Shown here one piece after another: positions 4,652 to 59,676 of a stretch of 64,000 bases of DNA. Numbering within the stretch: position 1 is the first letter of the stretch; each line of letters opens with the position of its first letter. The DNA is taken from the NCBI GenBank assembly GCA_963752255.1, contig CAVVXT010000014.1, positions 32,803 through 96,802 of the forward strand, given 5' to 3'. The notes below the pieces were generated by a model that searched no databases, was not told the origin of the DNA, and saw only the letters and a program-made list of their open reading frames with translations. A program made the position numbers and the translations under genes. This DNA comes from Nitrososphaeria archaeon. GTDB taxonomy: Archaea; Thermoproteota; Nitrososphaeria; JACIWG01.

Positions 4652-5855
4652 ATTCAATTTTGTTTATGATTTCTAATAGAATAGGATCATTTGATAAAAC
4701 AGATTTTATTGTTGAATAAGGAATAAGAAGTTTAGGCCTCTTGCTTCTTCCTTGCCTTCCCATGCTAGTCGTATAGGCAGATAGAATACCAAGCATAGAT
4801 AATTCGTTTAATAAACCACTTACACGCCTAGGAGTCAATTCTTGGACACCTAAATTATTGCAATATGAGCAGTAGCTAGTGTAAACAGCACCTGTAGATA
4901 AACTGTCTTTAATAGATGCTACACTTAAAACAATAAGTTTACTATGTAAAGGGAGTGACTTTAACGCATCAGATAACCTATCTTGATCTATTTTTAGAAG
5001 GGCTTCTCTAATTTGTTGCTCCTCAACATTTTTTAAACCGCTTCTTTCAGAAATTTCGCCTGCAACTCTTACAAGATCAACAGCACGTCTAGCATCACCG
5101 TGTTCAGAAGCTGCTAAAGCAGAAGCAAGATTAAGTGCTGAATCTGCAAATACATTTGGCATAAAACCTAACTTAACACGTTCAGAAAGTATGACTTTAA
5201 GTTCCTCAGCTGTATAAGGTGGAAATACTAATTCTTCTTCGCTTAGACTACTTAAGACCCTAGGATCAAGGAAGTCCTTAAAAGTTAAATCATTAGAAAT
5301 ACCAAGTATAGATAGGAATCCTCCCGATAATTTTTCATTTGACCTAGTCAATTCATAAAGTAAATCATCGCCATGGCTCTTCACTAAAAAATCTATTTCA
5401 TCCAATGTAATAATGCCTAACAAATTCTCTCTTGAAATTGTTTTAAATATTCTATCAAAAATTTCACTAATAGAAAGACCAGTGTGAGGAACAATAATAC
5501 CAAAATCTCTTGCCACTTCATATAAAATACGATATTCTGTACCGGCCATTCTAGTATTAACATATGAAAATTTGAACTGTATTTCTTTAGATGATGCTGT
5601 TTTTTTTAATCTGGAAAGAACGAAATTAGCGACAGCAGTTTTTCCTGTACCAGTCTTACCATATAAAAAAATATTAGAAGGTCTAACACCATGGAGAACT
5701 GGCGAGATGGCCTCTGCAATAATTTTTATTTGATCATCTCTAAAATAAAGTTTATCAGGAATATAATCAGATCTTAAAGAATTTCTATCTAGAAAAATAT
5801 TCGCGCTTTTTAGAGCTCTAGAAAAAATATCATCGATAGAGGAGTTATTGTACAT
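4641..5855 (-). CDS. cdc6: Orc1/Cdc6 replication initiator
   Basis: It has AAA+ Walker A YGKTGTGKT, Walker B ITLDEID and a C-terminal winged helix, and it lies next to the repeat-containing AT-rich intergenic region. Confidence 0.85.
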   Translation of the reverse strand: MYNNSSIDDIFSRALKSANIFLDRNSLRSDYIPDKLYFRDDQIKIIAEAISPVLHGVRPSNIFLYGKTGTGKTAVANFVLSRLKKTASSKEIQFKFSYVNTRMAGTEYRILYEVARDFGIIVPHTGLSISEIFDRIFKTISRENLLGIITLDEIDFLVKSHGDDLLYELTRSNEKLSGGFLSILGISNDLTFKDFLDPRVLSSLSEEELVFPPYTAEELKVILSERVKLGFMPNVFADSALNLASALAASEHGDARRAVDLVRVAGEISERSGLKNVEEQQIREALLKIDQDRLSDALKSLPLHSKLIVLSVASIKDSLSTGAVYTSYCSYCNNLGVQELTPRRVSGLLNELSMLGILSAYTTSMGRQGRSKRPKLLIPYSTIKSVLSNDPILLEIINKIESIE

Positions 5856-26677: not shown

Positions 26678-28181
<1,504 letters not shown>

Positions 28182-28318
28182 TTGAACGTTGGTTAACTGA
28201 CGAGTAGCATGATTAACGCCTTAGATGCAATTCGTGATCTAGACGATCATGGATGAAGGACATAGAGGGCTATATTCCCTCAATGATTGTCGTGCATAGT
28301 TGCGACAGCCAGAATAGT

Positions 28319-31414
<3,096 letters not shown>

Positions 31415-36983: not shown

Positions 36984-37703
36984 ATGTCGTTGTCATTTAG
37001 GGACATAAAATCATCATTGCTTCCCACGCTCCTAGAATTACTATGCATAGGTGCTAAGAATAATTCTATCGAAATATCTTCGATAGAATTAAGTAAACGT
37101 TTAGGAAAATCGCAACAAGCTGTCTCAACTCACATTTTAGAGTTAGAAAAACTTGGTCTCATCGAAGTTACCCATAAAAAAAGAAGATCCTGTATTAAGC
37201 TTACAGTAAATGGAAACTCTGTTTTGCTGAGCCTTTACTCCACTCTGAGAGAAATCTTTGAAGAAGTTCCAAATGTCATAGAATTCAACGGAGAAGTCTT
37301 CTCTGGAATGGGTGAAGGTTCGTACTATGTTACGATTAAGGGTTACAGTAGTCAATTTATCGAGAAACTTGGATTCAACCCCTACCCTGGTACACTGAAT
37401 ATTCGTCTAACATCAACTTTGGAAAGACGGCAAAAGAAGGAACTCGAATATTACACTGGTATACCATTGGAAGGTTTCCAAGATGGATACAGAACGTACG
37501 GTGGTGCAAAATGTTTTCCAGCAATTTTGAACGACAGCGTAGAGGGTGCAATAGTTATGACAAGAAGGACCCTCTATGACGAATCCGTCCTAGAATTCAT
37601 TGCTCCAATGAATCTTAGAGAACGATTAAAGCTCAAAGATGGTGACAGAGTCCGCCTTAAGGTATATTTCTCGGAAAAAAGTATACGTTCTATGTCTCAT
37701 TGA
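36984..37703 (+). CDS. ribK: CTP-dependent riboflavin kinase with an N-terminal winged-helix domain
   Basis: It has the archaeal RibK motifs PYPGTLNIRL and YTGIPLEGF, and an N-terminal HTH (KRLGKSQQAVSTHILELEKLGLI). Confidence 0.65.
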   Translation: MSLSFRDIKSSLLPTLLELLCIGAKNNSIEISSIELSKRLGKSQQAVSTHILELEKLGLIEVTHKKRRSCIKLTVNGNSVLLSLYSTLREIFEEVPNVIEFNGEVFSGMGEGSYYVTIKGYSSQFIEKLGFNPYPGTLNIRLTSTLERRQKKELEYYTGIPLEGFQDGYRTYGGAKCFPAILNDSVEGAIVMTRRTLYDESVLEFIAPMNLRERLKLKDGDRVRLKVYFSEKSIRSMSH

Positions 37704-38052
37704 CTAAGTTATCGTCTTTGAGGAGGGACGAACTTTTTATTCCTCCTATACTTTTAGTGAATCGAATAACTTTAATTTTCTTCCCTTTGGATTTGGCGAA
37801 TTCTTTGATCTCATTCTCGTTGTGTATTTGATCATATCCTAATGCGACGATATCGGGGTTGATTTTAATGAGGGTATTATATATGTTACCTTTTTCCCCG
37901 ATCATCGCGAAATCCACTATTCTTAACGAACTGACCAGTTCGAGTCTTTTTTCTTCGTTATTATACGTCTTCTTTCCTCTATTTTTTTCCGCTGTCTTGT
38001 CTGTTGCTACTATAACCACTAAGATGTCTCCTAAACTTTTTGCCATTCCCAA
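37690..38052 (-). CDS. ribL: FAD synthetase (RibL-like cytidylyltransferase); the coding frame extends upstream to about 38322 with no ATG/GTG/TTG
   Basis: The 120-aa ATG-initiated ORF matches the RibL C-terminal two-thirds. The essential (T/H)xGH motif CGGTFDIIHPGH lies in frame 8-19 codons upstream of that ATG, and the frame stays open to the TGA of the upstream gene. Confidence 0.55.
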   Translation of the reverse strand: MGMAKSLGDILVVIVATDKTAEKNRGKKTYNNEEKRLELVSSLRIVDFAMIGEKGNIYNTLIKINPDIVALGYDQIHNENEIKEFAKSKGKKIKVIRFTKSIGGIKSSSLLKDDNLVNET

Positions 38053-38325
38053 AGTTAACAGGTGTCCGGGATGTATTATGTCAAAGGTGCCACCACATAG
38101 AACAACTTTGACAGATTTTCTCCCACTTTCTGTGACTGTAACCTGTTTAGCGGTTGTTTTAATTTTACCTTTTTTGATAAGTTGTTCTGCGACCTTCCTG
38201 TTTTCTTCTAGGAAGGGTGAAAAAGATTCTATAATTTTTTTATAGAAAATTTTGGGGTTTTTCAGTTTTTCTACAAGAATCTTTTTTATGAATTCCTTTT
38301 CTATTTTGGGGTTTAACGTAAATTT

Positions 38326-39378
38326 TCACCATTTTAGGTCAAGAATTTTCTGGAATCTTAAAGAGTCTAAAAGTCCTTCAGCATAGCCAACGCTTAGCAT
38401 AGCAAGATGTTCCTCTCCTGAATTTAAAAATCTGATCGAGTCATCTAAGTAGCATTCAACATTTTCAAAAAGCTCGTCAAGATCCTGACTTTTTCCATGT
38501 GATATCTTATCTTTAGCCTCTCTCAGTGTGTCCCTTGTATTGTTAACGTACTTATTTACTAAGTATTCCACCCTTTTTTTTATGTTCTTGGTATTATCTT
38601 TAACCTTGTTCTTCCCTGTATCATAAAGAACCTGTATGGTTTCTTCTTCAGTGAAATGTAACTTTGATGGGATTACGATAGAGTAAGGTGGATATCCAAA
38701 ATCGATTCCTTCTAATTCTGATACCATTCCTGCATAAAATTTCTGGTCATCTCTTTCAATCCTACACGCCACAATCAAGAATGTGTCCTCCGAGAATGCG
38801 CCAAGCTTGTAAACATTTTCGGCATTTTCTAATGTTTTGAATGCAGACGTAGGTGAAACACCCTCCCCACTTTCTGTGTCAAATTCTAGCAAGAAGATAC
38901 TATGTGTTCCTTTTATCAAGTTATCATATAACGTAAAGTATACGGAAGTCGCAGGCGTACCGCTTTCCCTTATGATAGTCGTGACCCGCCCAAATTTATA
39001 TGGATGGAGGCCACAGCAGCTAGTTAAAAGTGAAACTATAGAAGTGTTATGAACAACTGTGCATAGAACACCACTTTTCTTTGATTCAACAACGAAATTC
39101 ATGTGCGTTGTCGCTAGGAGTGGGTCCCCAAGGACCGCTAGGCTGATATTCATTATTTTGGCTCTGTTCAAAATACTATCTATTTTATCCTCGAGGTCAG
39201 CTCTCTTGAGAACAGTAACTTCTTTACCAATCTGCAAACTTAAAGCCTTGACAAAGTTGACGGGAATCGGTGTAGTGTATCCATCAAGATATATGAAATC
39301 GCTTTTTTTAAGGACATCCATTCCACGCAAATTTATTGAATTAATTCCGTTGACTCCAAGTCCAACAAGCGCGAACAT
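38326..39378 (-). CDS. dphB: diphthine synthase (Dph5) with a C-terminal extension of about 85 aa
   Basis: It has LGDPLLATTH, YKFG and GYPPYSIVIPSKLH. The core is about 265 aa and is followed by a hydrophilic helical tail that ends at TGA. Confidence 0.7.
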   Translation of the reverse strand: MFALVGLGVNGINSINLRGMDVLKKSDFIYLDGYTTPIPVNFVKALSLQIGKEVTVLKRADLEDKIDSILNRAKIMNISLAVLGDPLLATTHMNFVVESKKSGVLCTVVHNTSIVSLLTSCCGLHPYKFGRVTTIIRESGTPATSVYFTLYDNLIKGTHSIFLLEFDTESGEGVSPTSAFKTLENAENVYKLGAFSEDTFLIVACRIERDDQKFYAGMVSELEGIDFGYPPYSIVIPSKLHFTEEETIQVLYDTGKNKVKDNTKNIKKRVEYLVNKYVNNTRDTLREAKDKISHGKSQDLDELFENVECYLDDSIRFLNSGEEHLAMLSVGYAEGLLDSLRFQKILDLKW

Positions 39379-58742: not shown

Positions 58743-58864
58743 CTATTTCAATACTCACGTGACAGAATAACAGATGTAAAAAATTTTGCAGAAAAATATT
58801 TAAAGTGAGTCATAGGCCAACAATGTTGTCTAAAGCGAGGAAAAATAAGAAACTGAAGACAAAT

Positions 58865-58939
58865 GCGACCGTAGTCTAGTCTGGTCTAGGACGGGAGCCT
58901 GCCACGCTTCTGACCCGGGTTCAAATCCCGGCGGTCGCA
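58865..58939 (+). tRNA. tRNA-Gly (GCC)
   Basis: The sequence gcgaccgtagtctagtctggtctaggacgggagcctGCCacgcttctgacccgggttcaaatcccggcggtcgca folds as a cloverleaf. Confidence 0.8.
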
Positions 58940-59061
58940 TCCTAAACAATAGGCAAAAATTAGTATCCTCAACCCATAGTAAAAATTCTAAGAAACTTCA
59001 CGTTTGCGGCTTAATCGACGATTTAAAATTATATATACCATCCTTAAGTGGCAATAACATA

Positions 59062-59676
59062 ATGCCTTACGGATTCAACTTTGATCTAAACAGCATTCCA
59101 AAGGCTTTCTTCAAGGAATTGGTGCTCGTCGCTTACAGGGGCAATGTTCATGCAAAGCTTGGCACACGGGCTAAAACGCTGGTCAAAAAATTCAAGATAA
59201 ACGAACTTACCGGCGTAGATTTCGGAGATGCGATAACACTTGTTGAAGACCTTATAACGGTTTACGCCAAGAACTTTGAATATCAGCCTTCATTCCAGTC
59301 CACCAACAGGAGGGCCGTCTTTTTGCCCCATTGTTCAAGGAAGTACATGGATGGAAGATGTAAGGCTTCCTTTGATCCAGCAATACCAGCCTACATGTGT
59401 AACTCCTGTTCGGAGGACTGCCTTGTAAATCAGGCTACAAAGATTGCGAGAAGTAAAATGTACGATGTATTCGTTGTTCCGGGTGGATCATGCATACCAA
59501 AAATACTGAAGGAAAGAGGGTATGACGGTATGATAGGAGTGGCGTGCAGCCAAGAACTGAAAATGTCCACATCCCCCTTAGATGCGTTGAAGGTTTCTGG
59601 GCAGGGGATACCTTTAACGAAGAACGGCTGTGCAAACACCAAATTTGAGCTTGACACATTAAGGGCAGTACTATAA
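59062..59676 (+). CDS. Cys-rich conserved protein, DUF116-like
   Basis: It has LPHCSRKYMDGRCKA...YMCNSCSEDC and is 204 aa, which matches the DUF116 pattern from memory. Confidence 0.35.
   Translation: MPYGFNFDLNSIPKAFFKELVLVAYRGNVHAKLGTRAKTLVKKFKINELTGVDFGDAITLVEDLITVYAKNFEYQPSFQSTNRRAVFLPHCSRKYMDGRCKASFDPAIPAYMCNSCSEDCLVNQATKIARSKMYDVFVVPGGSCIPKILKERGYDGMIGVACSQELKMSTSPLDALKVSGQGIPLTKNGCANTKFELDTLRAVL

Follow-up and report, generated by a model that had tools for sequence, protein, structure and literature searches.

An ACG codon at the ancestral start position of a RibL-like gene behind a diphthine synthase gene in a Nitrososphaeria archaeon

RibL orthologues are reported from all Archaea as FAD synthetase (PMC5397151). 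The paper that describes RbkR contains no description of a RibL form with a winged helix (PMC5397151). A review of archaeal translation initiation gives AUG, GUG and UUG as the only start codons (PMC7531240). Non-canonical starts are hardly documented in Archaea. In E. coli, initiation at ACG is detectable and places Met at the N-terminus, and the non-canonical start codons together span 0.01-3% of AUG; ACG initiation in bacteria is put at ~0.01-1% of AUG (bioRxiv 10.1101/063800). Termination-reinitiation has been measured in Haloferax over distances of +1 to +34 nt, where it drops by ~60% at 13 nt and is lost at ~22 nt (PMC10666635).

The locus described here lies in a stretch of 64,000 nt of Nitrososphaeria DNA, called the window below. 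On its minus strand, the ORF of a diphthine synthase (Dph5) runs in frame through its TGA stop into a RibL-like ORF that lacks a canonical start ahead of its catalytic motif. The initial annotation offered three explanations for this arrangement: readthrough or recoding of the TGA to give a Dph5-RibL fusion, a RibL that starts at a non-canonical codon, and a sense codon misread as TGA in sequencing. The second of these is the best surviving explanation.

The two genes and their shared reading frame

The upstream gene occupies 39378..38326 on the minus strand and encodes 350 aa, ending in TGG TGA with the TGA at 38328-38326. Its residues 1-253 form a Dph5 core that passes the equivalog threshold of TIGR00522 dph5 (169.1 bits, cut-off 114.3), and residues 1-162 match TP_methylase (PF00590, 46 bits). 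A C-terminal DUF357 domain follows at residues 276-345 (about 38344-38553; PF04010, 44.1 bits versus a gathering threshold of 29.4). The Dph5-DUF357 architecture, at 346-356 aa, is common to about 120 Nitrososphaeria homologues. Only unrelated DUF357x families came up in the literature on DUF357.

Past the TGA, the same frame stays open for 211 further codons, up to a TAG at 37692-37690. The window sequence contains no in-frame ATG, GTG or TTG between the TGA and the catalytic motif GGTFDIIHPGH (38094-38062). The first canonical in-frame starts, a TTG at 38052-38050 and then an ATG at 38046-38044, both lie downstream of that motif. Sequence, ORF list and translation agree with the initial annotation on the continuous frame and on the place of the first ATG after the motif, to which the TTG is to be added. 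Among the window ORFs of at least 100 aa, the 91-codon start-less run ahead of the first canonical start is the longest. The second-longest such run in the window, of 71 codons, is accounted for by an overlapping tRNA gene.

At the 38% GC of this DNA, 80 stop-free codons have a chance probability of ~4e-3, and the earlier estimate of about once in 10^3 is correct to within an order of magnitude. Chance does not explain the open stretch, which over its full length is homologous to proteins of 205-214 aa (E down to 1e-118). The initial annotation took this stretch to be a translated linker between two fused proteins. That the stretch is coding sequence is upheld; the role of fusion linker is not, and the stretch corresponds instead to a conserved winged-helix domain in a stand-alone protein of ~209 aa that is found throughout Nitrososphaeria.

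The winged-helix domain (38110..38319, minus strand, ~70 aa) forms the N-terminus of the RibL-like protein and is kept in the 205-214 aa homologues. It was recognised only through structure prediction because Pfam, run on the N-terminal domain alone, gave no meaningful match. AlphaFold models of the domain have a pLDDT of 88-90 and an H-H-H-E-E topology, and Foldseek matches it to the winged helices of MntR, DtxR and MarR/MepR at TM 0.7-0.76. The catalytic nucleotidyltransferase domain (37690..38109, minus strand) ends at the TAG stop and matches CTP_transf_like (PF01467, 65 bits). Its GGTFDIIHPGH motif and the K197-S198-S199 of a KSSS motif near the C-terminus are invariant in the RibL-like alignment and correspond to the (T/H)xGH and ISST/KSSS-type motifs by which an archaeal RibL is recognised. 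The closest solved structure is 3glv from Thermoplasma volcanium (41% identity, TM 0.90). Among the NCBIfam models, the generic TIGR00125 alone scores above its cut-off, without a RibL equivalog match, and some public records call the homologues "FAD synthase". As judged from these domains and motifs, the product of the second gene is a putative RibL-like FMN adenylyltransferase domain behind a winged helix.

The gene has a flavin-related neighbour. A convergent plus-strand gene (36984..37703) encodes a bifunctional protein of the RbkR type, in which a CTP-dependent riboflavin kinase is combined with a winged-helix regulator domain; the last 14 nt of this neighbour are shared with the 3' end of the RibL-like gene. 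No RibL paralogue occurs among the ORFs of the window, which covers 64 kb of genome. Public gene calls for the ACG locus give a truncated product of 118 aa that starts from the ATG (P0260) and lacks the catalytic HxGH motif.

The junction in related loci

Where the window encodes T, homologues of the post-TGA ORF have their initial M. Among the matches listed from the GTDB representative genomes, the window's own genome does not appear, and the best locus there is 50% identical. The closest relative, L085, which is the single locus returned by a metagenome pattern scan, shares 96.96% nucleotide identity with the window over 4173 nt with zero gaps. Its junction reads TGA AAA TTT ATG TTA and that of the window TGA AAA TTT ACG TTA, a difference of a single base, T-to-C, in the start codon. 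The junction in L001-L004 is TGA AAA TTT ATG GTA. At the site equivalent to the window's ACG (38317..38319, minus strand), an ATG stands 6 nt after the stop in seven related loci (L001-L004 and L085-L087). The cluster at >=90% identity has eight other members, all of them 209 aa long with M1, and in the relatives two genes are called, one with a product of 350 aa and the other with one of 209 aa. A Shine-Dalgarno-like GGTGA (38326..38330, minus strand) shares bases with the last two codons of Dph5, Trp and stop, and is separated by 6 nt from the start position of the RibL-like gene. The motif is also kept in relatives, and the 3' end of the 16S rRNA in the window, GGATCACCTCCTTT, has an anti-Shine-Dalgarno complementary to it.

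The TGA at 38326..38328 is a genuine stop, with TGA or TAA at the same place in relatives. TGA ends 13 of the 54 crude genes in the window and coding density there is normal, which rejects a TGA that is reassigned or generally leaky. The proposal of a sense codon misread as TGA is refuted by the same 13 genes, by the TGG TGA kept in close relatives and by the TAA of one relative. The in-frame arrangement of the two ORFs is limited to the closest clade. Relatives at <=75% identity are out of frame: one gap is 5 nt, another 8 nt (in the gene call, a 7-nt overlap), and a third, again of 5 nt, follows a TAA stop; the frame offset is 2 in L088, L090/91 and L092/93. A search of 5.8 billion proteins with a 562-aa concatenated query found no fused Dph5-RibL protein, and only Dph5-DUF357 proteins matched, at coverage <=62%. 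The initial annotation had reasoned that a fusion would be contradicted if orthologues had unrelated upstream sequence and, at an equivalent position, a canonical RibL start. Such a start is what the orthologous loci have; their upstream sequence is related.

In 46 of 92 related loci, the sole starts available to the RibL-like gene are TTG or GTG. L018, which comes from another MAG, has CTC at the aligned start where its relatives have TTG, suggesting that start loss is recurrent in the RibL-like gene. The ACG allele itself is also found in the Logan assembly L094 (run ERR10755942), which has 1 mismatch in 5603 nt relative to the window.

The RibL-like ORF remains intact over 209 codons, without stops or indels. 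Its dN/dS on the window branch is ~0.33, compared with 0.22-0.31 on the other branches and 0.26 for Dph5, where the window branch amounts to 9 codon changes and dN/dS is weak at detecting recent inactivation. Besides M1T, the amino acid changes specific to the window are S25F, N27K, E108K and K169N, and each new residue occurs in other homologues. Decay into a pseudogene is rejected on the absence of stops and indels and on a dN/dS like that of the neighbours, the latter being a weak test on so short a branch.

Explanations for the missing start codon

On this comparative evidence, the locus almost certainly consists of two separate, tightly packed genes, the second with a point-mutated start. 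In relatives, the ATG of the second gene stands 6 nt past the TGA and is served by GGTGA; because that motif overlaps the Dph5 stop, translation of the second gene is probably coupled to that of Dph5. The co-directional pair with its 6 nt gap is the layout expected of coupled genes, and the ACG aligned with the orthologous ATG, with GGTGA 6 nt upstream, is that expected of a near-cognate start. A strain-specific T-to-C transition has turned this ATG into ACG, and the protein may still be made at a reduced level. The Shine-Dalgarno contact might hold ribosomes on which initiator tRNA pairs with ACG as a near-cognate codon; alternatively, the pairing might take place on ribosomes fresh from termination 6 nt upstream. 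Little RibL may be enough, since about half of the related genes offer only the weaker TTG or GTG starts. ACG-level initiation may, on the other hand, be too little for an essential enzyme. Taken by itself, continued expression of the RibL-like protein from ACG is evenly balanced. Taken as a whole, the account that joins separate genes, a point-mutated start and continued expression from ACG is the best explanation and a fairly probable one.

The same T-to-C change might instead be real and have silenced the RibL-like gene, which would make this a young loss-of-function or strongly hypomorphic allele. The canonical starts would then yield a useless fragment of 118-120 aa without the HxGH motif, and FAD would come from another enzyme or gene copy, or else the allele would be mildly deleterious and transient. 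Silencing is favoured by the lack of a canonical start ahead of the catalytic motif and by public calls that give a 118-aa product only; it also agrees with the weakness of ACG as a start in bacteria and with L018, which likewise has no canonical start at the aligned position. We nevertheless consider it unlikely: loss of a FAD synthetase reported from all Archaea should be lethal unless compensated, the 64 kb of the window hold no paralogue, and the 209-codon ORF is intact with a dN/dS of ~0.3. ACG is moreover the consensus in two assemblies. Alternatively, a sequencing or consensus error might have put the C at 38318 where the true genome has ATG. The M1 of all eight other cluster members at >=90% identity and the single-base difference from the closest relative at the junction would suit such an error, as would any sharing of reads between the two assemblies, but the separately built Logan assembly has the same base and is not a copy, since one other position differs from the window. 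The gapless alignment with L085 over 4173 nt argues for high consensus quality, and real substitutions, at 3% divergence, are far commoner here than consensus errors, which makes an error at this base very unlikely.

UGA is generally the leakiest stop codon. Were ribosomes to pass the Dph5 TGA, at a basal rate or in a programmed way, they would yield a 562-aa Dph5-DUF357-winged-helix-RibL fusion as this strain's route to active RibL. The ORFs share a frame, just two sense codons separate the ancestral start from the TGA, and the closest clade has the same in-frame arrangement. If the active FAD synthetase domain came mainly from such leaky readthrough, as a polyprotein, the locus would show a natural gene fusion as it arises. 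There is little room for this reading, however, and its probability is slight. The frame relation is gone at <=75% identity, where one relative has TAA; the orthologues are separate, with ATG two codons past the stop, and this ATG is retained in all close relatives. No fused homologue came up among 5.8 billion proteins, and the window uses TGA as an ordinary stop. The initial annotation had suggested looking for a SECIS-like hairpin downstream: no SECIS or other Rfam element lies near the junction at a permissive threshold, and the single local hairpin (z = -3.9, starting ~40 nt past the stop) is absent from the consensus fold of eight relatives. A start at the out-of-frame ATG (38330-38332) that overlaps the Dph5 end, followed by a +1 slip on CCC_C into the RibL frame, would also bypass the ACG. 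The window does contain this ATG and a run of CCCC (ATG GTG AAA ATT TAC GTT AAA CCC C), and in L090/L091 the corresponding ATG shares the RibL frame and was chosen as the start by the gene caller. Such a slip, read off the sequence, is nonetheless exceedingly improbable, as relatives with a normal ATG have the same out-of-frame ATG, the CCCC is not conserved (TTCC in L004, TCCA in L086) and no stimulatory element is evident.

With separate genes and a mutated start as the preferred reading, the locus matters mainly for annotation: public calls give a 118-aa fragment, and the real gene is the 209-codon ORF with its mutated ancestral start. No new recoding mechanism or gene fusion is revealed. 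If the enzyme is still made, the locus would be a natural archaeal example of near-cognate (ACG) initiation or of a gene rescued through translational coupling. In a milder form of the polyprotein idea, ACG might be a working start codon in Nitrososphaeria.

Comparison with known systems

The protein described here shares with archaeal RibL (prototype Methanocaldococcus jannaschii MJ1179; 3glv) the cytidylyltransferase-like Rossmann fold and the GGxFDxxHxGH and KSSS motifs, and its gene adjoins a riboflavin kinase gene. Unlike archaeal RibL, it adds a winged helix of ~70 aa at the N-terminus and, in this strain, has ACG at the start. Near-cognate initiation has been followed with reporters in E. 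coli (bioRxiv 10.1101/063800), and the window resembles those cases in having ACG at the orthologous start with a Shine-Dalgarno motif at 6-nt spacing. In contrast to the reporter starts, the candidate ACG start here is a single-strain substitution of ATG and not a conserved feature.

Archaeal termination-reinitiation (Huber et al., PMC6728339, PMC10666635) offers a second parallel in the unidirectional gene pair, the 6 nt gap and the Shine-Dalgarno motif inside the upstream gene end. In archaeal pairs that are coupled, an overlap of 4 nt or 1 nt is typical, whereas we infer coupling here across a gap of 6 nt. The sole likeness to programmed readthrough or selenocysteine recoding is the in-frame ORF past the UGA; unlike those systems, the locus has no conserved frame, conserved structure, SECIS match or orthologue with a sense codon at the stop. 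RbkR matches the convergent neighbour at 36984-37703 in its architecture (PMC5397151), and in the RibL-like protein, as in RbkR, a winged helix and a flavin-cofactor enzyme are combined.

The dph5-ribL junction

The Dph5-DUF357 ORF (39378-38326, minus strand) spans 350 codons and, read on that strand, ends in TGG TGA. Residues 1-253 are identified as Dph5 by TIGR00522 (169 bits, cut-off 114), and a C-terminal DUF357 domain occupies residues 276-345. Past the TGA, the frame is stop-free for 211 codons until a TAG at 37692-37690 and encodes a cytidylyltransferase-like domain (PF01467, 65 bits). Minus-strand reading confirmed the initial annotation's claim that this frame stays open without a canonical start ahead of the GGTFDIIHPGH motif (38094-38062): no in-frame ATG, GTG or TTG lies between the TGA and the motif, and the earliest such codons, TTG at 38052 and ATG at 38046, are both downstream of it. 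The convergent 3' ends of the RibL-like gene and the neighbouring RbkR gene share 14 nt (37690-37703), an overlap called in all close relatives.

Contigs with the closest homologues share the window's gene order (DUF371, Dph5-DUF357, RibL-like, convergent RbkR, endonuclease V, translin), and Dph5-DUF357 and the RibL-like protein are called as separate genes in all of them. Orthologue alignment, suggested earlier as a means of telling fused from separate genes, came out for separate genes, with ATG two codons past the TGA in close relatives. The junction reads TGA AAA TTT ATG GTA AAC in L001-L003 (loci with 96-97% DNA identity to the window), TGA AAG TTT ATG GTA AAT in L004 (88%) and TGA AAA CTT ATG GTA AGT in L086/L087 (80% RibL protein identity). 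The closest relative, L085, recovered by scanning JGI metagenomes for a DNA pattern, is 96.96% identical over 4173 nt without gaps and reads TGA AAA TTT ATG TTA AAC; the window reads TGA AAA TTT ACG TTA AAC. By these alignments, the start-less state is one T-to-C transition at the second base (38318) of a conserved ATG. That the window holds two separate genes, the second with a point-mutated start, is almost certain.

A winged-helix N-terminus

The stop-free stretch after the TGA had been read as a translated linker between Dph5 and RibL. Homology and fold uphold its translation; it is the N-terminal domain of a separate second gene and not a linker. A search with the 211 post-TGA residues against 5.8 billion proteins returned 1345 homologues. 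Almost all of the best 120 are stand-alone proteins of 190-238 aa, and the named ones are from Nitrososphaeria. The closest homologues cover 96-100% of the query, linker included, and all aligned homologues start with Met where the window has Thr, two codons past the TGA. In AlphaFold models, residues 4-62 form an H-H-H-E-E winged-helix fold (pLDDT about 90) that goes unrecognised by Pfam. In structural superposition it matches the DNA-binding domains of MntR, DtxR, IdeR and MarR/MepR (TM 0.70-0.76, rmsd 1.7-2.5 Å). The remainder matches the RibL-like 3glv from Thermoplasma volcanium (41% identity, TM 0.90). Since homologues, fold model and the 3glv match agree, the stretch is coding as the N-terminus of the second gene. 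This winged-helix N-terminus (38110-38319, minus) is common to RibL-like proteins of Nitrososphaeria.

Tests of readthrough and decay, and possible initiation at ACG

Readthrough or recoding of the TGA to yield a Dph5-RibL fusion, as the initial annotation proposed, is not borne out by frame, homologues, genetic code or RNA signals. The 6-nt in-frame gap is limited to the closest clade; the genes are out of frame in L088 (75% protein identity; 5-nt gap), in L090/91 (8 nt to the aligned ATG, or, going by the gene call, a 7-nt overlap) and in L092/93 (5-nt gap, with TAA as the stop). No fused homologues were found, and a 562-aa concatenated query matched only Dph5-DUF357 proteins of 331-387 aa, at a maximum query coverage of 62%. 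Of the window's 54 crude genes, 13 have TGA as their stop. The search for a SECIS-like hairpin gave no Rfam match near the junction at E ≤ 1; a local A/T-rich hairpin starting about 40 nt downstream of the Dph5 stop (38200-38290, minus; MFE -21.2 kcal/mol, z = -3.9 against shuffles) lies within the winged-helix coding region but not in the consensus fold computed for eight relatives. The proposal that the TGA is an error for a sense codon fails as well, as a TGA or TAA stop is present in the relatives' junctions. Basal UGA readthrough is a very improbable supply route for RibL, and a +1 slip from an overlapping out-of-frame ATG (38330-38332) is more remote still.

A consensus or read error could account for the C at 38318, and the eight other cluster members (at least 90% identity) are 209-aa proteins that keep M1. 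However, ACG TTA is also carried by L094, a contig in the Logan assembly of run ERR10755942, where the window's truncated 118-aa gene call (P0260) recurs. L094 matches the window at 5602 positions out of 5603, and the sole mismatch, at 39023, rules out that it merely duplicates the same record, although the two assemblies possibly share reads. An error is thus unlikely. A loss-of-function allele deserves more weight but is still doubtful. No RibL paralogue lies within the 64-kb window. The 209-codon ORF has no stops and no indels, and its branch shows four synonymous and five non-synonymous changes, including M1T (dN/dS about 0.33), against six and six synonymous and five and seven non-synonymous changes on two sister branches (0.22-0.31); the window's Dph5 branch has seven of each (0.26). 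In the alignment, the new residues of S25F, N27K, E108K and K169N occur in other homologues. These substitution patterns argue against long-standing decay, and against that alone because the counts are small.

GGTGA (the Dph5 Trp and stop codons) is complementary to the 3' end of the window's 16S rRNA (GGATCACCTCCTTT), lies 6 nt upstream of the RibL start position and is kept in relatives. This motif and the 6-nt distance suggest that RibL would normally be translated from a dph5-ribL transcript by Shine-Dalgarno-guided initiation or reinitiation. Termination-reinitiation in Haloferax is about 60% lower at 13 nt and gone at about 22 nt (PMC10666635); the 6-nt intergenic distance falls inside the distances measured there. 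In the window strain, the same positioned ribosomes might initiate at the near-cognate ACG (38319-38317, minus) with low efficiency. Experiments in E. coli have shown that ACG can start translation with an N-terminal Met, with non-canonical codons reaching 0.01-3% of AUG (bioRxiv 10.1101/063800). We found no archaeal measurement of ACG initiation in the literature, and a review of archaeal initiation names only AUG, GUG and UUG as starts (PMC7531240). That the enzyme is still supplied by starts at the ACG is about as likely as not.

Weak starts recur elsewhere. TTG or GTG is the sole available RibL-like start in 46 of 92 related loci (mostly TTG; L005-L084), making a low requirement for the enzyme plausible. 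In several Nitrosopumilaceae loci, the TTG directly follows an in-frame TAG. An uncultured Nitrosopumilaceae MAG (L018:2860-3130, CAZDTF010000099.1) offers another, independent case of a RibL-like gene lacking a canonical start at the aligned position: it reads TAG CTC GAT GCA, and six relatives have TAG TTG GAT GC there. The canonical product of this gene would be without the winged helix because no canonical start comes in frame until a TTG at codon 65, immediately before the catalytic domain. In an uncultured Cenarchaeum sp. (L077:1714-3450, OY282369.1), the RibL frame stays stop-free over the 454 codons upstream, across the Dph5 gene in a different frame, perhaps by chance; DUF357 gave no match at this locus.

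Other features of the window and known systems

The window's second-longest start-less open run (58849-59676, plus; 71 codons upstream of ORF 59062-59676) coincides with tRNA-Gly (58864-58942) and is therefore probably trivial. A 99-nt Rfam tRNA match (2250-2348, minus; 47 bits), absent from the ARAGORN list and adjoining tRNA-Leu (2108-2195), is probably an intron-containing archaeal tRNA. The 16S-23S rRNA operon (26678-31414, plus) has a spacer of about 139 nt with no tRNA inside, and no 5S rRNA match was reported within the 64-kb window.

The start substitution makes an ordinary gene pair mimic a fusion and causes gene callers to report a shortened product that lacks the catalytic motif. 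Its importance would grow a little if use of the ACG as a start, or rescue by readthrough, proved true. Most of the 92 Nitrososphaeria loci that were examined (L004-L093; about 120 protein homologues) have the RibL-like gene directly after Dph5-DUF357, a conserved adjacency that hints at an apparently undescribed functional link. Both proteins are members of known families, and the Dph5-DUF357 fusion, the winged-helix-RibL architecture and the adjacency beside RbkR are conserved across Nitrososphaeria. RbkR has been described (PMC5397151) and, like the RibL-like protein, combines a winged helix with a flavin enzyme. Families, architectures and adjacency are thus not specific to the window; the single-base start-codon substitution alone is, which makes the case a minor natural variation of known type.
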